Notes: generated by a model not told the origin, from the letters alone. 63,581 nt of DNA from an uncultured Alphaproteobacteria bacterium (GCA_903879805.1 CAIRMX010000042.1:1-63581); one strand, 5' to 3'. Positions 12,301 through 51,387 are shown, counted from the first letter of the stretch. Numbers and translations are program-made.

Positions 12301-13175
12301 TCGGAACCGTCAATTATACCTGTAACAATGCTTCATTTGCCCAAACTAGTGGATCATGCACGCTTTCTCCAGCTTGCACCGGCGGCACTATCGATACCTC
12401 TTCGGTTCCGAGATCAACCATTCATAGATTTACCTCAGCTGGAACTTTGACTTGTACAGCCACAAAAACTGGTGTGCAAATTCTGGTTGTAGGTGGTGGC
12501 GGTGGCGGCGGTAGCCATAGCTCAACACTTGGTGGTGGTGGCGCTGGCGGCGGCGTTGTTTCTGTTGTAAGCGCCTCTTTAAATGCAGCATCTTATTCGA
12601 TCACTATTGGTAATGGCGGCAATGGCGGTGGCGGTGGCTGCGGTAGTGCTGGTGGAAGTGGTATTAATAGCACATTATCTGGCAGCGGCATGTCAATCAC
12701 TGCCTATGGTGGCGGTGGTGGCGGCGGATGTAATCAAGGCAATGGTTCTAATGGTGGCTCAGTTGGTGGACATTCTTGTAACTCAAGCGGAGGAAGCGCT
12801 TCACAAGGTGCTGCTAGCGGAACTGGCGGCTCAGTTACTCTTTACGGAAATATCAGCGCCTCAACTGCACTATGCTCTAGCGGCAATGGTACGGCTGGTG
12901 GTGGTGGCGCTGGCGGAGCAAGTTCTGGACCTTCCGGCAATACTGCAGGCGCCGGTGGCGCCGGATTAAGCAATTTAATCACCGGAATCTCTCAAGTTTA
13001 TGGCTCGGGTGGCGGTGGACAAGGCACTAGCGGGGCTGCGGGGGGCACGAATGCCGGAACGGGAAAAAGTGGAGGCGGCCGAACAGGAGGTGGAGCGGGT
13101 ACTGATAACTTTGGCGGCGGTGGCGGTGGCGGCGGTGGCGTGGGAGGCTCAGGCGTGGTAATTATTCGCTACTAA
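9381..13175 (+). CDS. Giant prepilin-leader protein, paralog 1: LamG domain, then two copies of a supermodule made of a four-Cys repeat array plus a glycine-rich domain
   Basis: 1264 aa. Class III signal KKKNG|FTLLEAAVVLVIIGVIAAGVFAG. LamG-like signature at about 9633-10266 (TAWYDL, VKFDGTNSYLDV, DYTIIILE, IYVNGIL, GQIGEIVMFARNLEDEERKSIEDYLGKKW). Gly-rich domains lie at about 10899-11722 and 12375-13172, each ending G(I/V)VI(V/I)RY. The start is uncertain: TTG at 9381 or TTG at 9414. AAGGAG lies at 9392-9397. Confidence 0.85.
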   Translation: MLQLRSSYHSKLFLYAKKKNGFTLLEAAVVLVIIGVIAAGVFAGTKLVKKFKIAAAQNLTLSSPVHGITDWILWLESSMDQSFNESESNNSSSLTAWYDLKNSAAKNNAIQSSSPNSPIYSNSINYIQAVKFDGTNSYLDVDGSGLNNTDYTIIILEQRDSDKNGNYFIGDVSSANDSITNRNLTLGYSADGNIRHSQSSDNVYTAAVSPYSDSLEKPRIFTFTRNKLTGKKIYVNGILAATSSDTNNLSNLSSIKIGKDYNGQIGEIVMFARNLEDEERKSIEDYLGKKWNSPILRSVAGGSCTNGMITLTGCTATCSIPSGTAGILSTSVSDGSGSLTCNTSNHFIGSLSYTCSNSILTFSGASSCACDSGYYLQSGSCVPNTCSVPTTTGISATSVADGSGSLTCDTSAHFTGSLPYTCSSTNLTLTGASSCACASGYYLQGSSCLPNGCSVSITGASTTSVSLASGTFSCDQSGYSGTITYTCGSGTFDTLYACASGSSTPQCSGGTIDTSTVSGSVIHKFTSSGSLTCSSSRSAQVLVVGGGASGGAAIAQGGGGGGGGGGVVYSSSYPVGTSAISVTVGAGGTSVATRSNGNNGANSVFGTMTALGGGYGGTWNGSTTTNGNTGGSGGGGGGAFGASGGSTTQTAQTNGTSFYGSAGGTPISSNPYNAAGGGGAGGAGGNSNATNGGIGGNGISHSISGNAVTYAAGGGGSGGNSNRAGGAGGSSGLGGAGGTAYSTSNAGGTGSSAGGSAGNGGGGSNNNSSGAGSNGIVIVRYIGSSVSCPSGYSLSGSNCIKSCNVSVAGVSTSSVTAGSGSLSCDAAGYTGSVSYTCPSSGTLSTTGSCACATGYTGSSCSSCASGYSMVSGTCQVSCSSGSIVGVNTTTVAAGTGSLPCNATNFNSATSINYSCSGGSFSVTSGTCNSCASGYTFASNQCYQNCTISGINGITAGTPVNHGSTSITCNASGYVGTVNYTCNNASFAQTSGSCTLSPACTGGTIDTSSVPRSTIHRFTSAGTLTCTATKTGVQILVVGGGGGGGSHSSTLGGGGAGGGVVSVVSASLNAASYSITIGNGGNGGGGGCGSAGGSGINSTLSGSGMSITAYGGGGGGGCNQGNGSNGGSVGGHSCNSSGGSASQGAASGTGGSVTLYGNISASTALCSSGNGTAGGGGAGGASSGPSGNTAGAGGAGLSNLITGISQVYGSGGGGQGTSGAAGGTNAGTGKSGGGRTGGGAGTDNFGGGGGGGGGVGGSGVVIIRY

Positions 13176-15307: not shown

Positions 15308-15346
15308 GAAATTGAGTTTAAGATTTTTTAATTTAAGCGCGTTGAC

Positions 15347-15442
15347 TGGACCCCGCAGTAAATGCGGGGTGACAAACTAAGGTGCGGAGTAAATCCCTCC
15401 TCGGTGTCACCCCGCATTTACTGCGGGGTCGAGTCAACGCGC
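15347..15442. repeat. Palindromic element, family 1 (RPE-like), architecture A
   Basis: gcgcgttgactggaccccgcagtaaatgcggggtgacaaac ... ctcggtgtcaccccgcatttactgcggggtcgagtcaacgcgc. It consists of two inverted copies of the module GGTGTCACCCCG-loop-CGGGGTCCAGTC. It lies between the divergent trpS and rnpB genes. Confidence 0.85.
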
Positions 15443-15515
15443 TCAGATTTTATTTATACTTTCTAGCAAATCTTAAATTGCTTTGAAAGGCGCGGCACCT
15501 TAATTTCGCGATCTT

Positions 15516-15916
15516 GTAAGGCAAGTGGATGGTCGCTGGTTTTAACTTGGTAACAAGTTTGAAAACTAGAGGAAAGTCCGGACTCTAGCGAGGAAAAATA
15601 TCAGTTAACGGCTGACCAGAATTTTGAATAAACTAGAAATTCTGAGGGAAAGTGTCACAGAGAATATACCGCTAAGCCTTCGGGCCAGTAAGGGTGAAAA
15701 CGCGAGGTAAAGGCTCACGCGCTTGCATGGTAACATGCATTTGGAAAAACCCTATTTAGAGCAAGACCAAATAGGAGTGGCAAGTTCTTCAATGAACAGA
15801 TGTCCTCGCCATCGTCACTCGGGTAGGTTGCTTGAGGTTAGCGGCGACGCTAATCCTAGATGAATGACTGTCGTTTGAGAAATCAGATACAAAATCCGGC
15901 TTATAGCTTGCCTTAC
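15516..15916 (+). ncRNA. rnpB: RNase P RNA, bacterial type A
   Basis: Universally conserved blocks in the correct order: GAGGAAAGUCCGG, ACAGAGA, GUAAGGGUGAAA, AGCAAGACCAAAUAGG, GGGUAGGUUGCUUGAG, CCUAGAUGAAUGACUGUC, ACAAAAUCCGGCUUAUAG. P1 pairing: gtaaggcaag (15516-15525) with cttgccttac (15907-15916). Ends are accurate to about +/-5 nt. Confidence 0.93.
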
Positions 15917-15938
15917 TTACAACTAAAAAATTTTACGC

Positions 15939-16730
15939 ATGCTTTCAACCAATCAAATCCGCACAAAATTTCTCGATTATTTCGCAGCCAATGGTCACGA
16001 GATTGTCGCATCTTCATCTTTAGTGCCGCATAACGACCCGACTTTGATGTTCACCAATGCGGGCATGAATCAGTTTAAAAATTATTTCACCGGCGTTGAA
16101 GTGCCAAAAGTTAAACGCGCCGTAACTTCACAAAAATGTGTACGCGCTGGTGGCAAACATAATGATCTCGACAATGTTGGTTTCACCGCTCGTCACCATA
16201 CTTTTTTTGAAATGTTGGGCAATTTTTCTTTCGGCGATTATTTCAAAGAAGAAGCCATTTTTTACGCTTGGAATTTTTTAACCAAAGAGCTCGAGATCAA
16301 CAAAGACAAGCTTTTGGTCACTGTTTATCACAATGATGACGTGGCTGCCGATTTCTGGAAAAAGATCGCCGGACTGCCCCAAGAAAAAATCATCCGCATC
16401 GCAACTGACGACAATTTTTGGTCAATGGGCGATGTAGGACCATGCGGCCCTTGCTCAGAAATTTTTTATGACCACGGCGATAAAATTTTCGGCGATGTGC
16501 CCGGTAGCAAAGACCAAGATGGCGATCGTTTTATTGAAATTTGGAATTTGGTTTTCATGCAATTTGAAAAACACAAAGATGGCAAAATGATCGAATTGCC
16601 AAAACCCTGCATCGACACCGGCATGGGTTTGGAGCGCTTAACATCTGTGTTGCAAGGAGTTCACGATAATTACGAAACTGATAGCTTCAGAAAGTTAATT
16701 TCTGAAATTCGTGCTTTGGGCGTTGCTTGA
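15939..16730 (+). CDS. alaS: Alanine--tRNA ligase, N-terminal catalytic-core fragment only (263 of about 880 aa). Either a split gene or a truncated remnant.
   Basis: Colinear with the AlaRS N-terminus: [74 protein letters not shown], and motif 3 DTGMGLERL. The ORF stops about 20 aa after motif 3. No continuation exists in any frame; the next 1.4 kb is a convergent ankyrin gene. Confidence 0.8.
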
Positions 16731-19725: not shown

Positions 19726-21039
19726 TTAATGTGTTTTTAAAAATTTAATTAGATCGGTTTTTTGCAATTTAAAATCATTTGCCGCCCAGAATTTTTTAGC
19801 CATTTCGATGGCCTTTCCAGCAGCTTGCCCCGTGAATCCAAGATTAATCACATCTTCACCACCTATTGGAAAATTTGGTAGGGAAAAGTTTTGCAAAAAT
19901 TTAATATTTTTTTTGGAGTTAGAATTTTTTTGTAGGTCGGAATTTTTGGCTAAAGAAAGTAAATACAAATCGAGTACAAGATCTTTGTCGGCAAAAGCTA
20001 ACAGTTGTTTGAGATCTCCCAGTCCCAACTCAAACCCACTGGACCCCGTCGTGAAGACGGGGTGACAAACTCTAGTTTGAGTTCCGTCTCGCCCCTCTCT
20101 CGGTGTCACCCCGTCTTCATGACGGGGTCCAGTCAACGCACTCAAAACATACAGAAAATATTTCTTTTCCAGATTTGTTGCGCAAATTTCTTGAGCAAAA
20201 ATTTTTAAATCGATTTCTTTTTGTAGAAATAATACCGCGATTTTTAGGTTTTGCGTGGCTAAAAATTCAAACTCTTTTTCTAAGTTATAAAGTCGCTCCA
20301 AAGCTTCAATATCAAGCTTTGAACTAAAAATTGAATCAGCAATTTTTTGCTCTTTAAGAACTTTTAAAACCGCGATTAAATTTTCTTTTTTCGCACTCAA
20401 AAGCATTTTTAAAACTTCAGCGCGCACTCTTTCTTTCGATAATTTTTTCAGGTTTTCTTTTTCGATCACGCAAGCATCTAAACCTTGCACATCAAGCTCT
20501 GCAGCATATTGGCAACTAAATCTGAAGAAGCGCAAAATGCGCAAATAATCTTCTTCGATTCTAGTTTTTGCCTCACCGATGAATCTAACTTTTTGCTTTT
20601 GAATATCAGAAATTCCATCGAAGTAGTCGCTCACCAAGCCAGCCGAATCAAGGTAAAGCGCGTTAATTGTAAAATCGCGCCTCTGTGCATCTAAAAAATA
20701 ATCACTGACAAATTCTGGCTCACAATGACGCCCATCAGTTTTGTCATCTTTGCGCAAAGTAGTAATTTCAAAATTCTTGCCAGCAACCACCGCCGTGATC
20801 GTGCCAAATTTGACGCCGGTTGGAATCGCCTTAATTTTATTTTTATTAATAATTTTGATGATTTCGTCAGGCAAATATTTTGTGCAAAAATCAAAATCAT
20901 GAACTTCTTTTTGCAACAATAAGTCGCGGACCGCACCGCCAACAATGCGGATTTCTTCACCGAAAATTTGGAAAAGAGTTTTTACTTCTGGGGAAAATTT
21001 TTTGATTAACTCTGGATGCGAGAAGGTTTTTGGCTGCAC
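19726..21039 (-). CDS. cca: CCA tRNA nucleotidyltransferase / poly(A) polymerase family protein carrying an in-frame palindromic element
   Basis: 437 aa with a GTG start. Motifs IVGGAVRDLLL, DFDF and RRDFTINALY. Residues LTGPRHEDGVTPREGRDGTQTRVCHPVFTTGSSG are encoded by the repeat at 20038-20143. Confidence 0.85.
   Translation of the reverse strand: MQPKTFSHPELIKKFSPEVKTLFQIFGEEIRIVGGAVRDLLLQKEVHDFDFCTKYLPDEIIKIINKNKIKAIPTGVKFGTITAVVAGKNFEITTLRKDDKTDGRHCEPEFVSDYFLDAQRRDFTINALYLDSAGLVSDYFDGISDIQKQKVRFIGEAKTRIEEDYLRILRFFRFSCQYAAELDVQGLDACVIEKENLKKLSKERVRAEVLKMLLSAKKENLIAVLKVLKEQKIADSIFSSKLDIEALERLYNLEKEFEFLATQNLKIAVLFLQKEIDLKIFAQEICATNLEKKYFLYVLSALTGPRHEDGVTPREGRDGTQTRVCHPVFTTGSSGFELGLGDLKQLLAFADKDLVLDLYLLSLAKNSDLQKNSNSKKNIKFLQNFSLPNFPIGGEDVINLGFTGQAAGKAIEMAKKFWAANDFKLQKTDLIKFLKTH
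20038..20143. repeat. Palindromic element, family 1, architecture A, inserted in frame in cca
   Basis: actggaccccgtcgtgaagacggggtgacaaac ... ctcggtgtcaccccgtcttcatgacggggtccagtcaacgcactc. The layout is the same as 15347-15442. The reading frame is maintained through the element. Confidence 0.85.
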
Positions 21040-35698: not shown

Positions 35699-38005
35699 CT
35701 AGTAACGCACTATTACGACACCACTTCCACCTTTAGAGCCCGCAATATCCTGACTTGGCGCACCGCCACCGCCAGCACCAAGGCCGTCAGTTCCAGCCAC
35801 ACCGACATTGCCGCCACCTCCCAAACCGCCAGTGCCGTTGCTGCCGCCTGAGTTATAATAACTAGAAGCTCCACCACCGCCATAATAAGTAGCCGTTCCG
35901 GTTATGCTATTTTGTATGCCGACTCCACCATTGCCACCCTTAGTACTTGAACCATTTTGTCCGGCACCTCCAGCACCGCCGCCGCCACCACCACCATAGT
36001 TAGGAGCAGATGAAGAATTGTTTCCTCCGGCATATCCTTGACCACTAGTTGCAGTACCACCGTTTTTCGAAGACCCAGAAATTCCTCCCCCACCGCCAGA
36101 GCCTCCTGAAGGTGCCGGAGTAGTATCTGCCTGACGAGCACCACCACCGCCACCGCCAATTGCTGTCAAAGATGAAGAAAATAAAGAATTTTCGCCATTG
36201 CTTCCCACCAAATTTGGAAAAGATCCACCCGTTGAAGCACTGCCATTTCCACCCGAGCCCACCGTGACTGTAATAGGAGCAGTAACCGAAAAAGAGCTGT
36301 TATAAATAACTCCACCTGCTCCTCCGCCAGATCCTCCAGCACCCCCAGCTCCTCCGCTACCGCCGCCACCACCAGCAACCACTAACACTTGCACTGACTT
36401 TGTGGCAGGACAGGTGAAGGTATAAGTTCCAACCGTCATAAATTTAAAAATCGTAGATCCCGGCACTGACGTTGTATCAGCGCTTGGGGCACCAGTACCA
36501 CTGACTGAACAAGAACCTCCCAAAACACATGTGGAACCGGATAAACTATATCCCGAAGCGCAAGCACAAGTTCCAACCGAAGATAAAGTTCCATTATTGC
36601 AGCTGTAAGTAACATCTGCAGTTCCGCTAAAATTAGTGCCGTTACAGATAAAACTTCCACTAGCCTGATGTGCAACTGTAGTAGGAGTAGAAACTCCCGT
36701 AACTGCTGTAGTAGAGCAAGATGATCCCAAAACGCACGAACCACCTGATTCAACATATCCGCCCGCCGTGTTGCAAGCGCACGCTCCGCCGTAGCTCGCA
36801 GTACCATTGCTGCAACTGTATGAAACTGTCCCTGTGTAACCCGTAACATTGCAAGTCATGCTGCCAGTAGCGCCACTGGCAACTGAGCTAGTATTTGTCG
36901 ATCCAGTCAAACTAAGTGTGCATGGAATAGTCGGAGTGCAGCTTCCGCTAACACTCGCTGTGCCGCTGATACAAGTGTAACTAACAGATCCCGAATAGTT
37001 GGTCTGGTTACAAGCAATTGAGGTTGAAGATGAAGTGGCGGCAACTGTAGCGCTAATCCCAGCTTGGCTGATGGAACAAGTCGCAGAAGCTAAATCGCAT
37101 CCAGAATCAGTAATTGTATATCCAACACATGAGCCGCTTGGTGCTGAAGCTCTGTTGATTGAACGAGTCCATTTCTTACCAGCGTAATCTTCAATTGGTT
37201 GTCTTTCTTCGGGCTTTAAAGCGCGGGCGTAAATCGCGATTTCTCCGATTTCTCCGGTGTAGCCTTTGCCAATTGCAAGTGAAGTAATGCCAGAAAGGTG
37301 AGCGGTTTTAGTCGCATCCTGCGCGGCTAAAATACCGTTGATGTAAGTTGAATTTCCCGCTGTTGAGCTGTGAACAAATGTGAATTGACGTGGCTTATCG
37401 GTTGAAGATGCGTAAGAGCTAACCGATGCACCAGTGGCGTAAGATTGATTTCCTTGAGCGTGAATCACTGTTGAGTCTGAACCGTAACCTAAAGCTAAGC
37501 TAGTATTGGGACTTCCTGAAGTTTCTCCGATAAAATAATTGTTACTGGCAGAGCTTTGTCTCTTCTCCAGAACCATGATTGTGTAGTCGGTGCCGTTTAA
37601 AAACGAAGCATCCGAGATTTGCAAATAGTTCGCCGTACTTCCGTCAAACTTAATCGCGTGAACGTGATTGATGGTGTTTGCGTAAGTTGGACCGGTTCCC
37701 ACCGCAACCACTAAAGGTTTAGCAGCATTGCTACTTTGATCATACCAAGCAGTTACTGCGGCACCATCACTTGCTTGCGAGCTGTCGATACTGGCACTTA
37801 AGCTAGTTTCTAGCCACAGCATATTATCTTTGATTCCGGGAACTGGCGAAGAGCGAGCTAGAGATTCTGCGGCGGCTAAACGTGATTTTGCAATTATACG
37901 AGTTCCGATGAAGGTTCCCGAAATCATAATGCCGATGATTAAGATAATTACCGAGAGTTCGATGAGGGTGAAGGCACGCGACTTATAATGTTTTTTATAC
38001 TTCAT
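35699..38005 (-). CDS. Giant prepilin-leader protein, paralog 2: LamG, four-Cys repeats and one glycine-rich domain
   Basis: 768 aa. Leader MKYKKHYKSRA|FTLIELSVIILIIGIMISG. LamG at about 37159-37768 (TAWYDQ, IKFDGSTANYLQI, DYTIMVLEKRQ, GKGYTGEIGEIAIYARALKPEERQPIEDYAGKKW). Cys repeats at about 36506-37132. Gly-rich domain at about 35702-36505, ending GSGVVIVRY. Confidence 0.85.
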   Translation of the reverse strand: MKYKKHYKSRAFTLIELSVIILIIGIMISGTFIGTRIIAKSRLAAAESLARSSPVPGIKDNMLWLETSLSASIDSSQASDGAAVTAWYDQSSNAAKPLVVAVGTGPTYANTINHVHAIKFDGSTANYLQISDASFLNGTDYTIMVLEKRQSSASNNYFIGETSGSPNTSLALGYGSDSTVIHAQGNQSYATGASVSSYASSTDKPRQFTFVHSSTAGNSTYINGILAAQDATKTAHLSGITSLAIGKGYTGEIGEIAIYARALKPEERQPIEDYAGKKWTRSINRASAPSGSCVGYTITDSGCDLASATCSISQAGISATVAATSSSTSIACNQTNYSGSVSYTCISGTASVSGSCTPTIPCTLSLTGSTNTSSVASGATGSMTCNVTGYTGTVSYSCSNGTASYGGACACNTAGGYVESGGSCVLGSSCSTTAVTGVSTPTTVAHQASGSFICNGTNFSGTADVTYSCNNGTLSSVGTCACASGYSLSGSTCVLGGSCSVSGTGAPSADTTSVPGSTIFKFMTVGTYTFTCPATKSVQVLVVAGGGGGSGGAGGAGGSGGGAGGVIYNSSFSVTAPITVTVGSGGNGSASTGGSFPNLVGSNGENSLFSSSLTAIGGGGGGARQADTTPAPSGGSGGGGGISGSSKNGGTATSGQGYAGGNNSSSAPNYGGGGGGGAGGAGQNGSSTKGGNGGVGIQNSITGTATYYGGGGASSYYNSGGSNGTGGLGGGGNVGVAGTDGLGAGGGGAPSQDIAGSKGGSGVVIVRY

Positions 38006-42048: not shown

Positions 42049-44811
42049 CTAAGATCTTGGGTAGAGAATAATCACAACCCCACTACCTCCATTGCCACCT
42101 ATTATTGAAGTGGTGTCTGTGCTATATCCAGCAGCTCCGCCTCCACCGCCAGTATTTGCTAAGCCATTGCCTGCTTTTACTGATGTTGAAGTTCCGTTTC
42201 CGCCTCCGCCACTTGAGGCAGTTCCGCCGCTTCCGCTTCCATTTCTTACGCCGCCACCACCGCCACTCGCAAACCAGCCACTATTGCCAACGGAAGTTCC
42301 AAATGTTGAGCTGTAATTAACTCCCGATCCCCCATTGCCACCAACTGTACTTGAAGCATTAGCACCAACAGATCCGGCGCCGCCACCGCCGCCAGCTAGG
42401 TAACTTCCGTCGCTGTAACCATTTCCACCATTATTGCCTTGACCAGAGGTGCCTGTTCCAACTACAGAACTGCCAGTGTTTTGTTCAGCGGCTCTACCGC
42501 CACCTGATCCGCCATTTTTATTGCCTGAAGGTGTAGCTCCGCCGTGATAGCCACCTCCACCCCCACCAACTGCTGTTAGTTTTTGCGTTACTGTATTAAC
42601 ATCAAATACTGAATTAGTTCCCACTTTTCCATCTTGTCCAGAGGTATTCCATCCACTTCCACCAGCGCCACCAGATCCCACTGTTATTGAATAGCTAGAA
42701 GCACTTAAAGCGTAACTTGATTGATATATTAATCCTCCAGCTCCACCGCCTCCGCCTATTACGCCACCACCACCGCCACCGCCAGCTACAACAAGAATCT
42801 TAGCGGTTTTAGTTGTGGTACAAGTTAAAGTTCCTGACGAGGTGAATTGGTGCAGAGTGTAAGTAGTTCCTGATATTGTTGGAGTAGTAATTGTTCCTCC
42901 GGTACAATCGACTCCTGCAGTAGCTGCAACCGCCGAACTAGTATTCGAAGAAACCGCTGAAGAAGTTCCGCCAGAACCCGTCGCCGTAACTTTACAAAGT
43001 AGAGTGCGCCCAACGTCTCCTGAAACCGGAGCGTAACTCGAAGAAGTAGCTCCAGAAATCGCCGCCGGAGTGCCATCCGCCCGCCACCATTGGTAAGTGT
43101 AGCTCGATGGCGAACCTGACCAAGTTCCAGTAGTTACCGTAACTGCAGTGCCAACTACTGGAGAAGTCGAAGAAAGCGCCGGAGCAACACTGTTAGTTGG
43201 AGGATTTGTAACCGCCGACGTCGCATTGGAGGAGGCTGGGGATGTTGAAGTTCCACCCGCGTTAGTTGCAGAAACTTTACAAATCAGCGTGTGTCCTGCG
43301 TCCCCCGAAACCGGAGTGTAACTTGAAGAAGTAGCTCCAGAAATCGCCGCAGGAGTACCATCCGACCACCACCAAGCGTAAGTGTAACTAGTTGGAGTTG
43401 GCGACCAAGTTCCAGTACTTGAAACGCTAATCGCAGTACCAACCGCAGCAGAGCTGGCAGATAGTGTAGGCGCAACGCTGTTAGTTGGAGCTGAGAGAGT
43501 GCAAGTTCCAGTAATCGTCGCAGATCCACTTGTTGTGCAAGTGTAAGACGGAGCTGGTGAGGTGCTTGCCGTGTAATTTGTTGCGCAAGGAGAAGAAAGT
43601 GCTGTCGCGCTTGCCGCATAAGCAAGACCGGCTTGGTCGTTAAAGCCAGTAACGCTGGTGATTGTGCAAGTAGTAGCCGTGCAAGCACTTGGAGAGGCAT
43701 GTAGATCCCCGCCATAACAGTTGTAAGCAATCGTACCAGAATATCCCAGCGAAGTGTTACAGGCTAGGTTTCCCGTTGCTCCGTCAACCACTGAGCTTGG
43801 TGTTGAAACTCCAGTCACGCTCACAGTGCAAGAATTGTCACATCCACTGCTTGCAGAATCGGTAACAGTTCCGTTGAGGCAGCTTGGGTTGGCGCTAGTG
43901 TCGCTACTACTTTCTCCAGTGATTCCACTACTGCTGACAACACTGCGATTAAGTTTTCTGGTCCATTTCTTCCCGATGTAATCTTCAATTACTTTTCTGT
44001 CGGGGATGGGAAGAGCTTTGGTAAAAATTGCAATCTCACCGATTTCTCCAGTGTAGCCTTTGCCAATTGCCAGAGTTGTTACTCCAGAAAGTAGTGCGGT
44101 TTTACTAGTATCTTGTGCAGCTAAAGTTCCGTTAATGTAAGTCTTCTGACCTTCAGTTGAGCTTTGAGTGAAGACAAAGAGTCTTGGAGTTTCGGTTGAG
44201 TTAGCGTAAGCGCTTACCTTCGGAGTTACGGTGTAATTTGTAGAATTGTGACTGTGCGCAATGACCCCGTCACTGGCGTAACCAATGGCTAGTTTGTCGT
44301 CGACAACATCACTGGTGTCAGTGGTGCTTAAAAAATTTCCAGCATTTGCCGCCTGTCTTTTTTCTAGAACCACAATCGTGTAATCAGTTCCGTTTAAGAA
44401 GCTGGCATCAGCGATTTTTAAATAGTTGGCAGTGCTTCCGGAGAATTTTACCGCATGAACGTAGTTGATTGTGTTGGCGTAAGTTGGGCCGGTTCCAACT
44501 TTGGTGATTGATGATTTATCTCCCGCAACTTTCTGGTCAGTCCAAGTGCTAATGGCAGAAGTGTCATTACTTTCTGAATCTAAGAAGCTGTCTTCCAAGC
44601 TACTTTCTAGCCAAAGAGCGTTACTACTTATTCCAGAGATTGGAGAGGATTTGGTTAGATTTTGTGCGGCTTGGATGCGGAATTTTTTGACTAGGGAAAT
44701 ACCAGCGAATACTCCGGCGATTAGGATGCCGATGATGATAAGGACGACTGAAACTTCGACGAGGGAGAAAGCTCGATGGCGAGGATTTAAAGGCTTTTGA
44801 GATTTTAACAT
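42049..44811 (-). CDS. Giant prepilin-leader protein, paralog 3: LamG, Cys repeats, two 96-aa Ig-like tandem repeats and one glycine-rich domain
   Basis: 920 aa. Leader MLKSQKPLNPRHRA|FSLVEVSVVLIIIGILIAG. LamG at about 43957-44559, very similar to paralog 2 (TGPTYANTINYVHAVKFSGSTANYLKI, DYTIVVLEKRQ, GKGYTGEIGEIAIF). Gly-rich domain at about 42052-42906 (HQFTSSGTLTC...KILVVAGGGGGGG...GGSGVVIILY). Confidence 0.85.
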   Translation of the reverse strand: MLKSQKPLNPRHRAFSLVEVSVVLIIIGILIAGVFAGISLVKKFRIQAAQNLTKSSPISGISSNALWLESSLEDSFLDSESNDTSAISTWTDQKVAGDKSSITKVGTGPTYANTINYVHAVKFSGSTANYLKIADASFLNGTDYTIVVLEKRQAANAGNFLSTTDTSDVVDDKLAIGYASDGVIAHSHNSTNYTVTPKVSAYANSTETPRLFVFTQSSTEGQKTYINGTLAAQDTSKTALLSGVTTLAIGKGYTGEIGEIAIFTKALPIPDRKVIEDYIGKKWTRKLNRSVVSSSGITGESSSDTSANPSCLNGTVTDSASSGCDNSCTVSVTGVSTPSSVVDGATGNLACNTSLGYSGTIAYNCYGGDLHASPSACTATTCTITSVTGFNDQAGLAYAASATALSSPCATNYTASTSPAPSYTCTTSGSATITGTCTLSAPTNSVAPTLSASSAAVGTAISVSSTGTWSPTPTSYTYAWWWSDGTPAAISGATSSSYTPVSGDAGHTLICKVSATNAGGTSTSPASSNATSAVTNPPTNSVAPALSSTSPVVGTAVTVTTGTWSGSPSSYTYQWWRADGTPAAISGATSSSYAPVSGDVGRTLLCKVTATGSGGTSSAVSSNTSSAVAATAGVDCTGGTITTPTISGTTYTLHQFTSSGTLTCTTTKTAKILVVAGGGGGGGVIGGGGGAGGLIYQSSYALSASSYSITVGSGGAGGSGWNTSGQDGKVGTNSVFDVNTVTQKLTAVGGGGGGYHGGATPSGNKNGGSGGGRAAEQNTGSSVVGTGTSGQGNNGGNGYSDGSYLAGGGGGAGSVGANASSTVGGNGGSGVNYSSTFGTSVGNSGWFASGGGGGVRNGSGSGGTASSGGGGNGTSTSVKAGNGLANTGGGGGAAGYSTDTTSIIGGNGGSGVVIILYPRS
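42922..43488 (-). repeat. Tandem 288-bp (96-aa) coding repeat, two copies, inside paralog 3
   Basis: Copy 1: PTNSVAPTLSASSAAVGTAISVSSTGTWSPTPTSYTYAWWWSDGTPAAISGATSSSYTPVSGDAGHTLICKVSATNAGGTS. Copy 2: PTNSVAPALSSTSPVVGTAVTVTTGTWSGSPSSYTYQWWRADGTPAAISGATSSSYAPVSGDVGRTLLCKVTATGSGGTS. Confidence 0.85.
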
Positions 44812-45224
44812 GCTTAGGTCAAAAAAATTTTGGGAAGATTTGGGGACAAAATTTCAACTTGATCTGGCCCGTCAAGATATACTTCTCTCGCATCTCAAAA
44901 ATAGATTTTCAAAGTTGTAGGTAGCTTTTAGAAATCACCACTATCTAATGCGCGCACCTTGCGATAAATTCCAAGGTGACCGAAGTGTCGATTGTAGCGC
45001 AACACCAAATCTAACCACAGATTTGGTCAAGCTTGAAGACTCCCGCACCAACCCTTGGTACGGCCAGCTTTCGCGGGGACTCTCCCGCATCATCAAATCA
45101 ATAGCTAAGTTCCCTTTAGATTTTCAGATTTGAGAATAGTTGTTTTTTCTTTTACCTATCTTTGTCACTTACCGCAATTTTTTTGCGGCAATCCGGTTTT
45201 TTTCAAACATCAAATTTTTTGATA

Positions 45225-47267
45225 ATGCCATCTTTTTCTAAACTTAATCTAAATCCTAAAATTCTTTCAGCTCTTGAAAGCAAAGGATACAACATCCCAA
45301 CCCCAATCCAGTTCCAAGCTATTCCACCTTTACTTGAAGGTCGTGACATTTTGGGCATCGCTCAAACCGGAACCGGAAAAACCGCCGCCTTCTCTTTGCC
45401 AATCATTCACAATCTGGTAAAAAGTGACGTCACCGTAAAAAGCGGCAGCGTGCGTACTTTAATCTTAACTCCAACTCGCGAACTGGCTTCACAAATTGCC
45501 GACAATATTGAGCTTTACGGCAAAGACCTTGGTCTTCGTCACGCTGTAGTTTTCGGCGGCGTTTCTGAACGTCCGCAAATTGCTTCAATGCAGCGCGGTG
45601 TTGATATTCTAATCGCAACACCGGGACGTCTTCTTGACCTAATGAATCAAGGTCACGTTCGCTACGCCCAACTAGAAATTCTAGTTTTGGACGAAGCTGA
45701 TCGCATGCTCGACATGGGTTTCATCAATGATGTTAAAAAAATCATCGCCAAACTTCCTGAAAAAAGACAAACTTTGTTCTTCTCTGCAACCATGCCCGAA
45801 ACCATTGCAGATCTAGCTAATTCAATTTTGAACAACCCAGTTCTTGTTGAAATCACGCCGCAATCAACAACTGTTGAACGCATCGAGCAAAAATTAAATT
45901 TCGTTGAAAAAGGTAACAAACTTTTGCTTTTGAAACGCATCTTGAAACAAGAAGACGCTACCAGCGTTTTGGTTTTCTCTAAAACTAAACATGGCGCTAA
46001 CCGCGTTGTTGAGTTTTTGGAAAAAAACTTAATTTCAGTTGCCGCAATTCACGGCAATAAATCACAAGGTGCCCGTGAAAAAGCTTTAAACAATTTTCGC
46101 GAAGGCAAAGTACAAGTTTTGATCGCAACCGATATCGCAGCACGCGGCATCGATGTTCCGGCAATCTCACACGTAATTAATTACGACATTCCAATGGATC
46201 CTGAAAGCTACGTTCACCGCATCGGCCGCACGGCTCGCGCTGGCAGACAAGGTATTGCGATTTCTTTCTGCGATCCTTCTGAACGCAAACTTTTGCAAGC
46301 TGTTGAAAAAACCATCCGCTTCAAAATTCCAGTTGATGACACTCACCCATTCCATGGTGTGGCTGCAGCTCCTGTAACTAGAAGTTCGGAAGATGATGAC
46401 AGAAGAGAAAAACCAGCTCGTCGTCCATCAAGCGGCAGACAATACGGCCATTCAGTGAACAAAGATCGCAAAATCGCAGCAGCTTCTTCATCTTCAGAAA
46501 GAAGAAGTTCAGCTCCTAGAGACGATCGCAGAGAAGGCGGCAGAGACGACAGAAATTCAGCGCCTAGAGGCGAAAGAAGTTCAGCACCTAGAGGTGAAAG
46601 AAGCTCAGCTCCTCGTGGTGAGCGAAGAGAAGGTTTTGGTGGCGGACGCGACGATAGACGCGGCGCCCCTGCAAGACGCTCAGAATCTCGCCCAGTGGTT
46701 GACCCAAGCAAAAGCGGTTTACTTGATTTCATCGGCTTCGGCAAAAAGAAATCTTACTCTTCACAAACCGGCGGCATGAGAGTTGGCAGAGATGGCAATT
46801 CATCTTTCCGTCCTGAAAACAGAGACAGAAGAAGTGCTGGTGGCGATGACAAAAAAGCTTTCGGTTTTGGCAGCTGGTTCAAAAAACCATCTGATTCAAG
46901 ATCTGACTCTAGATCAGAACCAAGAGATGATTCATTCGGCAACCGTGAAAGACCAGCTGGCGGCGCTTCACGCGGCGGCAGATCTGGCGCTCCTCGCGAA
47001 AGAAGAGAAGGCTCTTCATTTGGCGGCGGCGAAAGATCTTTCGGCGGCGGTGAAAGAAGATCTGGCTCCTCTTTTGGTGGTGGAGAAAGAAGATCATCTA
47101 GCTCATCATTTGGTGGCGGCGAAAGACGCTCATTTGGCGCTGGCGGCGGTGATAGAAGATCATCTGGTTCGTCATTTGGCGGCGGCGAAAGAAAACCTTA
47201 CACCGAAGGCGCTCCAAGAAGATCAACTGGAACTAGAGCTCCAAGCCCTAAAAAGCGCTGGCAGTAG
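45225..47267 (+). CDS. rhlE: DEAD-box ATP-dependent RNA helicase (RhlE-like) with a 300-aa R/G/S/D-rich repeat tail
   Basis: Q-motif PTPIQ, then AQTGTGKT, PTRELA, DEAD, SAT and HRIGRTARAG. The tail contains SAPRGER x3 and SFGGGER(R) x5-6. The start is taken at MPSFSKL; the ORF is open from 45162. Confidence 0.9.
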   Translation: MPSFSKLNLNPKILSALESKGYNIPTPIQFQAIPPLLEGRDILGIAQTGTGKTAAFSLPIIHNLVKSDVTVKSGSVRTLILTPTRELASQIADNIELYGKDLGLRHAVVFGGVSERPQIASMQRGVDILIATPGRLLDLMNQGHVRYAQLEILVLDEADRMLDMGFINDVKKIIAKLPEKRQTLFFSATMPETIADLANSILNNPVLVEITPQSTTVERIEQKLNFVEKGNKLLLLKRILKQEDATSVLVFSKTKHGANRVVEFLEKNLISVAAIHGNKSQGAREKALNNFREGKVQVLIATDIAARGIDVPAISHVINYDIPMDPESYVHRIGRTARAGRQGIAISFCDPSERKLLQAVEKTIRFKIPVDDTHPFHGVAAAPVTRSSEDDDRREKPARRPSSGRQYGHSVNKDRKIAAASSSSERRSSAPRDDRREGGRDDRNSAPRGERSSAPRGERSSAPRGERREGFGGGRDDRRGAPARRSESRPVVDPSKSGLLDFIGFGKKKSYSSQTGGMRVGRDGNSSFRPENRDRRSAGGDDKKAFGFGSWFKKPSDSRSDSRSEPRDDSFGNRERPAGGASRGGRSGAPRERREGSSFGGGERSFGGGERRSGSSFGGGERRSSSSSFGGGERRSFGAGGGDRRSSGSSFGGGERKPYTEGAPRRSTGTRAPSPKKRWQ

Positions 47268-47461: not shown

Positions 47462-47497
47462 GCTCCCCTCCTTGAAAAGGAGAGGCTTTAGATCGAG
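47462..47497. repeat. Solo right-end copy of the CCCCTCCTT/AAGGAGGGG hairpin element family
   Basis: gctcccctccttgaaaaggagaggctttagatcgag matches 51237-51273. It lies 6 nt downstream of the stop of the minus-strand helicase gene. Confidence 0.7.
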
Positions 47498-47503
47498 AAT
47501 TTT

Positions 47504-49063
47504 TTAGTCCTTCTTTCCCGAAGAAAGTTTTCTGCTACCAGTTCTGTCAATTGGCTTGTCGCTTGGCGCGCGTACCGGTCTTTCTCTTTTTGGTTCATTT
47601 CTTTCTTCTCTTGGCTCTCTTCTAGTGTCTCTCGAGTCGCCTCTTTCAGCGCGTGGATTTCTCTCGCCTCTAGAATCATTTCTTCTTGGCGCCGGTTTTT
47701 TGGCGTCAGTTCTTTTTGGATCAACTCTTCTTTCTGGATGCTTTGCTACAGGTTTTTTTACTGAAAATAAACCCATTACAAAACCGAAAATTCCGGTTTT
47801 TTTCTTAGGCTTTGGAGCAACTTTTGGCGCGTGATGTGACTTATGTTCAACTTTTTTTTGCATTGGTTTGTGATTATTTAAATTAATTTTTTCTTCTCTT
47901 TTTTCGTGACGTACCGGTGCTGATTTTTTGCCGCTGTAAGGATGCGAATCATCAACCGGAATTTTGTAGTTAATCGCTTTTTCAACAGCGCGTAAAAGCG
48001 TGTCGTCATGCGGGTCGCCGAAAGAAATCGCTACGCCTTGTCTGCCAGCGCGAGCCGTGCGGCCAATTCTGTGAACGTAACTTTCAGGATCTGATGGAAT
48101 GTCGTAATTAATCACGTGCGAGATCGCTGGAATGTCGATGCCGCGCGCTGCTACGTCAGTTGCCACCAAAACCTGAATTTTGCCTTCACGAAATTTATTT
48201 AAAGATTTTTCGCGTTGTTCTTGATCTTTGTCGCCATGAATTGCCGCAACAGAAATGCGGTTTCTTAGCAAATAATCTTCAATGTCATCTGCGCCATGTT
48301 TGGTGCGTGAAAAAATAATCACGCTAGTGGCATTTTCTTGTTTTAAAATGTGTCTAAGTAGCGCCAGCTTGTCGTGTTTTTCGACAAAATAAATTTTCTG
48401 ATCAATGCGCTCAACCGTTGTCGATTGTGGCGTCACTTCAATGCGAATTGGATTTGTTAAAATCGAATCAGCCAATTCAGAAATCGCTTTTGGCATGGTT
48501 GCTGAGAAGAAAAGCGTTTGTCTTTTTGAGGTAATTTTGGCGATTACTTTTTTGATGTCGTTGACAAAACCCATGTCGAGCATGCGATCTGCCTCGTCCA
48601 AAACCAAAACTTCCACTTGCATGAAACGGATGTGACCTTGGTTGGTGAGGTCAAGAAGGCGTCCCGGAGTTGCGATTAAAATATCAACACCACGCTGCAA
48701 TTGCGTGATTTGTGCACGATCAGAAACACCGCCGTAAACCAAAGCGTAGCGCAGGTTTAGGTCTTTGCCGTAAGCATCAATATTTTCAGCAATTTGCGAA
48801 GCGAGTTCGCGAGTTGGAGTTAAAATCAAAGCACGCACACAACCGCTTTTTGCCGAGATGCCGCTTTTGGCAAGATTGTGCAAAATCGGCAAAGCGAAGG
48901 CTGCAGTTTTACCGGTTCCGGTTTGGGCAATGCCTAAAATATCTTTGCCCTCAAGAAGTGGTGGAATGGCTTGGAGCTGGATGGGAGTTGGAGTAACGTA
49001 GCCTTTCTTTTCAAGAGCAGCGAGGATTTTTGGGTTAAGGTGTAGGTTAGTAAAAGATGTCAT
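47504..49063 (-). CDS. rhlE: DEAD-box ATP-dependent RNA helicase (RhlE-like), paralog 2, with a lysine/arginine-rich tail
   Basis: 519 aa. The motif set matches 45225-47267, and the core is roughly three-quarters identical by eye. The tail (about 47504-47935) is unrelated and K/R/E/P-rich. Confidence 0.9.
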   Translation of the reverse strand: MTSFTNLHLNPKILAALEKKGYVTPTPIQLQAIPPLLEGKDILGIAQTGTGKTAAFALPILHNLAKSGISAKSGCVRALILTPTRELASQIAENIDAYGKDLNLRYALVYGGVSDRAQITQLQRGVDILIATPGRLLDLTNQGHIRFMQVEVLVLDEADRMLDMGFVNDIKKVIAKITSKRQTLFFSATMPKAISELADSILTNPIRIEVTPQSTTVERIDQKIYFVEKHDKLALLRHILKQENATSVIIFSRTKHGADDIEDYLLRNRISVAAIHGDKDQEQREKSLNKFREGKIQVLVATDVAARGIDIPAISHVINYDIPSDPESYVHRIGRTARAGRQGVAISFGDPHDDTLLRAVEKAINYKIPVDDSHPYSGKKSAPVRHEKREEKINLNNHKPMQKKVEHKSHHAPKVAPKPKKKTGIFGFVMGLFSVKKPVAKHPERRVDPKRTDAKKPAPRRNDSRGERNPRAERGDSRDTRREPREERNEPKRERPVRAPSDKPIDRTGSRKLSSGKKD

Positions 49064-49087
49064 TTGGAAAAAAATAGAATGGAAAAT

Positions 49088-51083: not shown

Positions 51084-51273
51084 CTCGATTTCTCCCCTCC
51101 TTTTCAAGGAGGGTTTGGGGGTGGTTATTCCAAGAATTCAGATTTGTTATTTTTTGAAAAATTTACAAAAGCCCAAACACCATTTACACGAAAAACATCC
51201 TACCTCGAATCAACATCTTACCCGCGAATAACCACCCCAACCCCTCCTTGAAAAGGAGGGGCTTTAGATCGAG
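51084..51273. mobile_element. MITE-like non-autonomous element: about 47-nt terminal inverted repeats, each holding a CCCCTCCTT/AAGGAGGGG hairpin, and no coding capacity
   Basis: The left TIR at 51084-51130 (ctcgatttctcccctccttttcaaggagggtttgggggtggttattc) is the reverse complement of the right TIR at 51226-51273 (gaataaccaccccaacccctccttgaaaaggaggggctttagatcgag). The 95-nt core is AT-rich. Partial copies lie at 1-84 and 47462-47497. Confidence 0.75.
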
Positions 51274-51387
51274 AACTATTTCAAAAACTTTTTTCAAGAT
51301 ATCGCCAGTTTTGGATTGCGCTGCGTTTTACCCGCTTTAATTTGCACCGCTCCAATTTTCTTCTTCCAAATCAAATCAATCAAAACC

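Follow-up and report, generated by a model that had tools for sequence, protein, structure and literature searches.

An in-frame CGTC-type REP dimer in the cca gene of an uncultured alphaproteobacterium

In a stretch of 63,581 nucleotides from an uncultured Alphaproteobacteria bacterium (GCA_903879805.1 CAIRMX010000042.1:1-63581; hereafter the window), the gene cca, encoding a class II tRNA CCA-adding enzyme, carries a 96-nt palindrome inside its reading frame. We conclude that this palindrome is very probably a non-autonomous dimer of repetitive extragenic palindromic (REP) units of the CGTC type, inserted in frame in an inter-helix loop of a functional cca. An initial annotation, made from the DNA alone, had described a palindromic element (its family 1) lying wholly inside cca and leaving the frame open. 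Our analysis bears this out: the palindrome is contained entirely within an intact open reading frame (ORF) of 437 aa, and the peptide quoted at the time is present exactly in the product. The gene and the parts of the element are:

19726..21039, minus strand: cca, class II tRNA CCA-adding enzyme gene, intact, 437 aa (from the ORF, PF01743 and the fold)
20038..20133, minus strand: core element, head-to-head homodimer of CGTC-type REP hairpins, 96 nt = 32 codons, T303-S334 in frame (from palindrome search, RNA fold and relatives)
20104..20133, plus strand: REP unit toward the 5' end of the coding strand, reading TGTC (head), ACCCCGTC (stem), TTCAT (loop), GACGGGGT (stem), CCA (tail), GT; encodes TGPRHEDGVT (from sequence and the criteria of PMC3733652)
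20068..20103, no strand assigned: 36-nt spacer between the REP heads, encoding PREGRDGTQTRV
20038..20067, plus strand: REP unit toward the 3' end of the coding strand, reading AC, TGG (tail), ACCCCGTC, GTGAA, GACGGGGT, GACA (head); encodes CHPVFTTGSS (from sequence and palindrome search)
20134..20146, no strand assigned: possible outer extension CAACGCACTCAAA, like the outer arm of an intergenic copy at 15.3 kb; its attribution to the element or to native codons (VLSAL) is uncertain

The palindrome and its host gene

The two arms (20038-20067 and 20104-20133) are 30 nt long, 97% complementary and 36 nt apart. Folded as RNA, the element reaches -66.6 kcal/mol, compared with -39.7 ± 3.5 in shuffled sequences (z = -7.6), and none of 200 shuffles was as stable. 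The in-frame product of the core is TGPRHEDGVT...CHPVFTTGSS, and the peptides encoded by the insert include HEDGVTPR, DGTQTR and VCHPVFTTGSSGFELGLGDLK. One of the three frames is free of stops on each strand and, because the element is palindromic, the same peptide (TGPR...TGSS) is obtained in either orientation. With one open frame in three and a length that is a multiple of three, about 1 in 9 random insertions would be readable. The element had earlier been placed at 20038-20143 and credited with roughly 34 additional residues. The start and the in-frame addition stand; the core, by contrast, stops at 20133, and 32 residues were measured against the orthologues. The roughly 10 extra nt (CAACGCACTC) resemble the outer arm of the 15.3-kb copy, and an orthologue with an empty site, P0007, likewise has GTTTTG at the right-hand boundary position. 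Because that orthologue shares part of the bases there, the right-hand boundary, and with it the last ~10 nt, is uncertain. Rfam gave no match to the element at the gathering threshold, and below it only chance matches to eukaryotic miRNA hairpin models.

CGTC-tagged REPs are defined by an unpaired CGTC head (often TGTC or CCTC), an 8-9-bp stem opening with an A-T pair, a 4-5-nt loop and an unpaired 3-nt CCA tail; they are found mainly in Alphaproteobacteria, mostly as head-to-head dimers with 20-100-bp spacers, and are without an associated transposase (PMC3733652). In the cca element the head is TGTC at 20104-20107, with the complement GACA at 20064-20067, and CGTC takes its place in high-GC relatives. 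The stem (ACCCCGTC / GACGGGGT) has 8 bp with A-T first and encloses 5-nt loops, GTGAA and TTCAT. The tail (...GACGGGGT-CCA-GT at 20128-20130, TGG at 20040-20042) is present in nearly all copies compared. In cca the two units are joined head to head across a 36-nt spacer, the repeat occupies three loci in the window, and its spread is alphaproteobacterial. On these features we assign the element to the CGTC-tagged REP superfamily; judging by stem and loop length alone, the unit would be CGTC-2-like.

The repetitive nature of the element, as originally perceived, is evident from two more family copies in the window, both intergenic: the window has 3 occurrences of the arm motif GGACCCCGTCGTGAAGACGGGGTGACA where 0.00 are expected, and the three REP loci in its 63.6 kb comprise 6 units. 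The spacer ends of the cca copy (AACT..., ...CTCTCGG) are similar to those of the 15.3-kb copy. In REP units from related genomes, both unconstrained stem positions are paired in 182 of 186 cases with at least 9 pair combinations, and therefore the hairpin itself is the conserved feature.

The host gene runs for 437 uninterrupted codons, and its product includes ...YFLYVLSALTGPRHEDGVTPREGRDGTQTRVCHPVFTTGSSGFELGLGDLKQLL... and contains the PF01743 PolyA_pol head domain (E = 1.1e-30, 107 bits). Among solved structures, the human mitochondrial CCA-adding enzyme 4x4w is closest in sequence (E = 3e-53). The AlphaFold2 model of the product has a mean predicted local distance difference test score (pLDDT) of 86.5 and a predicted template modelling (TM) score of 0.80, and Foldseek matched it to 4x4w, 8cbm, 1miv and 5hc9 with probability 1.00, at TM-scores of 0.68-0.78 for the first three. 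Class II CCA-adding nucleotidyltransferases combine a PolyA_pol head bearing catalytic motifs with a helical neck, body and tail; the motifs GG.VRD, DxD and RRDFT.NA are invariant in the homologue alignment. NCBIfam scores fall under the equivalog cut-offs, and a specificity for CCA addition, rather than for A addition or poly(A) synthesis, is putative. The order lpxI-cca-lysK, lysK encoding a class I lysyl-tRNA synthetase, is kept in contigs L001, L002, L118, L119 and L123; L120-L122 are short and stop at or within a flanking gene.

Outside the insert, cca is under purifying selection: the ratio of non-synonymous to synonymous rates (dN/dS) is 0.12-0.20 (~0.15) in 7 pairwise comparisons, including the closest pair (dS 0.16). 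By this ratio the gene is not a pseudogene, and tblastn found no second cca in the 63.6-kb window; a pseudogene accompanied by a second intact cca elsewhere was what the initial annotation had named as contrary evidence. No intrinsic terminator-like site was found within cca, and the window contains no tRNA genes. The gene had also been called essential. This is unproven, because tRNA-Thr (L020 1872-1946, minus strand, from the same metagenome-assembled genome (MAG) as orthologue P0002) and tRNA-Cys (L026 2983-3057, minus strand, from a related MAG), the two genes from related MAGs that made up this check, encode their own 3' CCA. The enzyme may serve repair in this clade and need not be strictly essential.

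Orthologues and the inter-helix loop

The window protein was aligned with its 120 best homologues (121 sequences), and inserts were counted from a length of at least 8 residues. Such an insert is present at this position in 13 of the 120 homologues, or 14 of the 121 with the window, where the extra segment is 32 residues long. Most aligned homologues are 395-410 aa in length, and the nearest ones without an insert have 406 and 409 aa versus 437 aa here. The insertion is thus absent from most orthologues. A metagenome scan with the single protein gave no match. The alignment-based metagenome scan gave 80 loci, mostly distant (30-55% identity) and none with an insert at this loop, and an insert at this position was found in 0 of 79 more distant metagenome homologues. 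The closest orthologues have these states at the site:

P0001, 95% identity to the window protein: same insert, 2 nt differences in 96
P0002, 91% identity: GGGGCCCAGT between TTGAC and GGG, the last 13 nt of the element, left after an in-frame 84-nt deletion
P0003, 80% identity: empty site
P0007, 73% identity: empty site

The same insert, with 2 of 96 nt different, is found in the independent assembly L002 (95% aa identity), and L001 retains only GACGGGGCCCAGT after the 84-nt in-frame deletion. The inserts of carriers measure 96 nt, 72 nt (P0004) and 135 nt (P0005), all multiples of three. Alignment with orthologues had been proposed as a check on the insertion, and it supports the proposal. 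A homologous segment in unrelated bacteria had been named as contrary evidence, and this came true only in a narrow sense: it is close relatives, and not unrelated bacteria, that bear related or different REP dimers at the site. The closest insert-carrying relatives are L118 (GCA_020047435.1) and L119 (GCA_013558295.1), which come from assemblies with very high contig numbers (e.g. JACCDN010506454); this suggests bacterial sequences within eukaryotic genome assemblies, that is, host-associated relatives.

In the AlphaFold2 model, residues 306-335 have pLDDT < 50 and form the sole long stretch of this kind, with confident helices at 289-303 and 340-349 on either side. The insert is therefore predicted to be a disordered excursion between two helices of the C-terminal helical region, compatible with the surface loop that the initial annotation had expected of a structure model.

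This loop is the most frequently occupied position in the alignment:

Position 303 (this loop): 14 sequences with an insert of at least 8 residues
Position 277 (loop preceding helix 278-284): 6 sequences
Position 273: 2 sequences
Position 41: 1 sequence
Position 336: 1 sequence

At least three distinct CGTC-type REP dimers were found at the loop:

CCCCG-stem family: window, P0001, P0004, P0005, P0008, P0010, P0030
ATCCTGAAA-stem dimer: P0006
CCCTCTCCC-stem large palindrome, -139.6 kcal/mol: P0011, P0014

Further, unrelated inserts occupy it in P0009, P0025 and P0104, the last of which consists of three tandem LSKEDRRSS copies. About 25 residues upstream of the loop, P0080, P0086, P0090 and P0096 have palindrome-encoded SCHSREGGNP...WIPAFAGMT inserts. 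The IPAFAGMT-type inserts at position 277 look like CGTC-1-type REPs, a likeness based on their similarity to R. conorii peptides listed in PMC3733652. In P0060, a 41-residue insert directly follows the GG.VRD motif.

In a single-gene neighbour-joining tree of cca, a clade with a bootstrap value of 94% unites the eight closest sequences; bootstraps in the clade are 94-100%, apart from a single internal node (69%). The clade branches as ((P0004, P0005), (P0007, (P0006, (P0003, (P0002, (P0001, window)))))), and in this order the states of the site are family A, family A, empty, other REP, empty, remnant, family A and family A. The window, P0004 and P0005 have common boundaries, with GCG YTR preceding AMTGGA ... 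TCYAGY and GGG YTT GAG following it. P0004 and P0005 are sisters with 86% nucleotide identity outside the insert; between them the inner stem and loop of both arms have been exchanged together (GTC-GTGAA-GGC vs GCA-ACAAG-TGC), and their spacers measure 12 vs 75 nt. Such a concerted swap is unlikely to have arisen by point mutation. The cca inter-helix loop is a recurrent hot spot of insertion and turnover, and two readings would account for the pattern: an old insertion that was later lost in some lineages and converted by other genomic copies, or repeated REP insertion or mutual replacement at the exact site.

The latter could amount to site-directed turnover, in which a resident REP or the local sequence serves as a landing pad, and REP dimers insert or replace one another at the exact codon position. 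We consider this improbable. The count of 14 sequences at this position against 6, 2, 1 and 1 elsewhere would fit it, as would the variety of dimers at the loop, the patchy presence of the insert over a well-supported clade topology and the swap within unchanged boundaries in P0004 and P0005. However, a permissive-loop filter combined with an ancient insertion, later loss and gene conversion would produce the same pattern without any targeting, and other loops (277, 273 and 41) have been hit too. The tree is that of one gene, built by neighbour-joining, and no transposase is known for CGTC REPs, although no search for one was made here. If true, a landing pad would imply an active hairpin-guided mobilization or conversion machinery for CGTC REPs. 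It is likewise unlikely, on our estimate, that CGTC REP dimers continue to move within this clade, homing on existing REP sites, the cca loop being a fixed dock for successive window-, P0005-, P0006- and P0011-type REPs. If it is such a dock, it would be the first evidence of site-specific, hairpin-guided turnover in a REP superfamily without a known transposase, visible inside a protein-coding gene.

Persistence of the insert and competing explanations

In the interpretation we favor, a palindromic REP dimer whose length is divisible by three entered a functional gene in its one open frame, at a loop that joins two alpha-helices in the C-terminal helical region of the CCA-adding enzyme. The 32 extra residues would be translated and tolerated as a solvent-exposed loop, and the copy may persist as a passenger close to neutral, since selection would purge no variants other than those that break the frame. 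In this way, selection on cca would keep readable insertions at tolerant positions only. The insertion is probably older than the divergence of the window lineage from P0001 and P0002, and an in-frame 84-nt deletion may later have left 13 nt in P0002.

Several observations weigh against this interpretation. That the insert is translated and the enzyme active is something we infer from sequence, and a second cca may exist beyond the 63.6 kb of genome examined. Low AlphaFold2 confidence over a segment fits a surface loop without proving it. The boundaries of the element are uncertain by ~10 nt per side, and no duplication of the target site can be seen: the flanks of the cca copy, AAACCC before ACTGG and CAACGC after CCAGT, are not direct repeats. 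Neither are those of the 15.3-kb copy, where the flanks extend the palindrome. In showing no such duplication around terminal inverted repeats, the element differs from a transposase-mobilized miniature inverted-repeat transposable element. Finally, the high conservation of the insert could instead mean that it has a function.

Co-option of the insert, either through a structure in the mRNA (tuning cca expression as a pausing site or a site for RNase III) or as a functional tRNA-binding peptide loop, is the form that such a function might take. Between the window and P0001, the 96 nt of the insert contain 2 substitutions vs 13.9 expected at the synonymous rate (Poisson P ~1e-4), an evolution ~7x slower than that of synonymous sites and a stronger conservation than a neutral passenger should show. 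The hairpin is also very stable, and the arms are ~92% identical between the window and P0004, despite the genes being 73.5% identical in nucleotide sequence with dS > 1. However, intergenic copies in many genomes keep the arm sequences equally well, and we therefore attribute this conservation to a constraint on the REP hairpin or to homogenization with other copies in the genome, and not to a function within cca. The 2 substitutions that separate the insert of the window from that of P0001 are both non-synonymous. The spacer of P0004 is unrelated to that of the window (12 vs 36 nt), and with 75 nt in P0005 the spacer is free to vary in length and sequence. P0003 and P0007 lack the insert and P0002 has lost most of it in frame, with selection on cca unchanged. 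We regard co-option as very unlikely.

The idea that cca is a decaying pseudogene or the insert an assembly artefact, with a frame that is open by accident, is barely credible: one of three element frames is readable by chance and cca could be dispensable, given the CCA encoded in tRNA genes of related MAGs, yet dN/dS is low even in the closest pair, the catalytic-domain motifs all align and are invariant, an independent assembly (L002) has the same insert, L001 has lost exactly 84 nt, in frame, and the 72-nt and 135-nt inserts of P0004 and P0005 are multiples of three as well. For the visible sequence, the pseudogene alternative is effectively excluded. An intein, intron or bypass was rejected by reasoning on the sequence, as the insert has 32 codons, no stop or frameshift, and is in frame in every carrier; inteins exceed 100 residues and have splice-junction residues.

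Related copies, neighboring features and known repeats

The two intergenic copies in the window are:

15330..15449, no strand assigned: head-to-head homodimer of the GCA-GTAAA-TGC stem subtype, flanked by the start of trpS and the RNase P RNA gene; absent from L001
59150..59268, no strand assigned: tail-to-tail heterodimer joining both stem subtypes, upstream of aspS

The RNase P RNA gene (bacterial class A, RF00010, 258 bits; window 15517-15919, plus strand) occupies most of what appeared to be a long trpS-alaS spacer, and nearly the same sequence is present in L001. The REP dimer upstream of rnpB sits in a ~160-nt block (window ~15317-15477) with 10-nt inverted repeats, TTTAAGATTT / AAATCTTAAA, at its edges. 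In L001 (11290-11800), this block is replaced by 11 nt, and the neighboring RNase P RNA gene is almost unchanged. REP sites are gained or lost between close relatives, as this presence/absence polymorphism demonstrates, and the size of the block suggests a mobile unit larger than the REP dimer.

A scan of genome contigs for the arm motif, with one genome per species, gave at least 114 stretches; among the matches listed, the motif occurs mostly in alphaproteobacterial MAGs, several of them labelled Rickettsiales, and in Tepidicaulis, Parvibaculum and Sphingomonas. In another alphaproteobacterial MAG, an 852-aa ORF (L024 1217-3772, minus strand) has the same REP family in frame, with the peptide TGPRHEDGVTP, TGPRHEDGVTPSESS...TTGSM. 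Its REP insert (TGPRHEDGVTPSESSTTSDNLSLSPRRTTGSM) lies in a lysine-rich linker, and many membrane segments are predicted in the C-terminal half of the ORF. Other candidates were discarded. The long ORFs across REP dimers in the high-GC loci L010, L069, L073 and L087 are arginine-rich junk frames and not genes, and in L007 the element lies upstream of a likely nuoN-like start codon. A word-index search for other proteins with the insert peptide gave no candidates. A HMMER search of 1.84 billion representatives with the insert peptide returned only P0121, a spurious ORF over a tandem array of another repeat, although a 32-residue query has little power against 50%-identity clusters.

A second palindromic repeat family (CCCCTCCTTTTCAAGGAGGGGTTGGGGGTGG) is present in the window at 25-87, 47465-47501, 51094-51130 and 51235-51284, and it resembles the CCCTCTCCC-stem palindrome that P0011 and P0014 (L123) carry in frame at this cca loop. 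An ORF with only the N-terminal part of alanyl-tRNA synthetase (PF01411), 261-263 aa long, is found at window 15939-16730 (plus strand), L001 10511-11302, L002 10351-11142 and L119 12324-13109. Its length is kept in these four genomes, it converges on an unannotated 450-560-aa gene, and it looks like a conserved truncated AlaRS-like gene, not a recent pseudogene. Elsewhere in the window, glycine-rich (GGT/GGC) repeat coding regions lie on both strands at 10-13.2 kb, 35.8-36.4 kb and 42.2-43.5 kb, and have paralogous segments in common (for example 37231-37424 with 44025-44218, and 12428-12511 with 42764-42847). A 1139-nt inverted repeat (45210-46348 and 47940-49078, 76% complementary) is presumably a diverged pair of paralogous genes in opposite orientation, and between its arms there are SFGGGER-type tandem repeats at ~46985-47192.

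The closest precedent for the cca element is provided by the CGTC REPs of Di Nocera, De Gregorio and Rocco 2013 (BMC Genomics 14:522), which have the same unit architecture, dimer type and alphaproteobacterial hosts. Among them are Rickettsia palindromic elements (RPEs) of the RPE-4 and RPE-6 families; in-frame REP dimers coding for 20-30 residues are described from numerous species and known genes, tRNA synthetases and truB among the latter, and different REPs occupy roughly the same recB site in two Xanthomonas species (PMC3733652). The initial annotation had proposed that the phenomenon first described in Rickettsia recurs in this lineage. This holds, and can be put more exactly: the element is a CGTC-type REP dimer, and in-frame insertions of the superfamily had already been catalogued outside Rickettsia (PMC3733652). 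The present hosts differ from those of that catalogue in being uncultured freshwater or host-associated MAGs labelled Rickettsiales. A text search of its supplements for cca as a target gene gave no match, and one loop repeatedly occupied by several REP families across a clade is not described in that paper.

In its relation to the host gene, the cca element is RPE-like: an in-frame palindrome, a gene under selection and a fold-compatible position. Ogata et al. reportedly described, in 2000 (Science 290:347) and 2002 (Genome Res 12:808), ten families, RPE-1 to RPE-10, of palindromic repeats in frame in Rickettsia genes. Like the cca element, Rickettsia RPEs are in-frame palindromes in housekeeping genes with a family-specific peptide, judged compatible with fold and function. 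The cca element is of a different sequence family and host (~42% GC), and RPE-1 is ~150 bp long vs the 96-bp core here. With a limit of E = 10, neither the flanked insert peptide nor the P0005 variant matched an NCBIfam or Pfam model, the RPE content of these libraries being unverified; the insert therefore appears to lie outside the named RPE families, within the same superfamily and phenomenon. A more distant resemblance is to REPINs (REP doublets forming hairpins) and their RAYTs (REP-associated tyrosine transposases), a system treated by Bertels and Rainey (e.g. PMC8049555, bioRxiv 10.1101/2021.07.10.451892), in that two inverted REP hairpins can fold as one long hairpin, populations persist and evolve within lineages, and sites are gained and lost among close relatives. 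In contrast to CGTC REPs, which have no associated transposase gene, the REPINs described to date are of the GTAG type, need a single-copy RAYT transposase (IS200/IS605-type Y1) whose gene the REPs flank, and are described as extragenic.

Collectively, our data provide a clean case of a REP/RPE-like palindrome in frame in a conserved tRNA-maturation enzyme, from an uncultured alphaproteobacterial lineage. The full insert, the 72-nt and 135-nt versions, the 13-nt remnant and the empty sites form a natural series on the tolerance of a CCA-adding enzyme at one of its loops. The catalogue of in-frame REP insertions is thereby extended, and the established picture drawn from Rickettsia RPEs and CGTC REPs is unchanged. 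Since insertions of this kind were already known in Rickettsia and in other Alphaproteobacteria, the recurrent use of the loop with swapping of subtypes might be the only aspect that is potentially new. Together with the concerted arm swap, this recurrent use is the more useful lead into whether these orphan REPs, lacking a known transposase, still move and how their sites are chosen.

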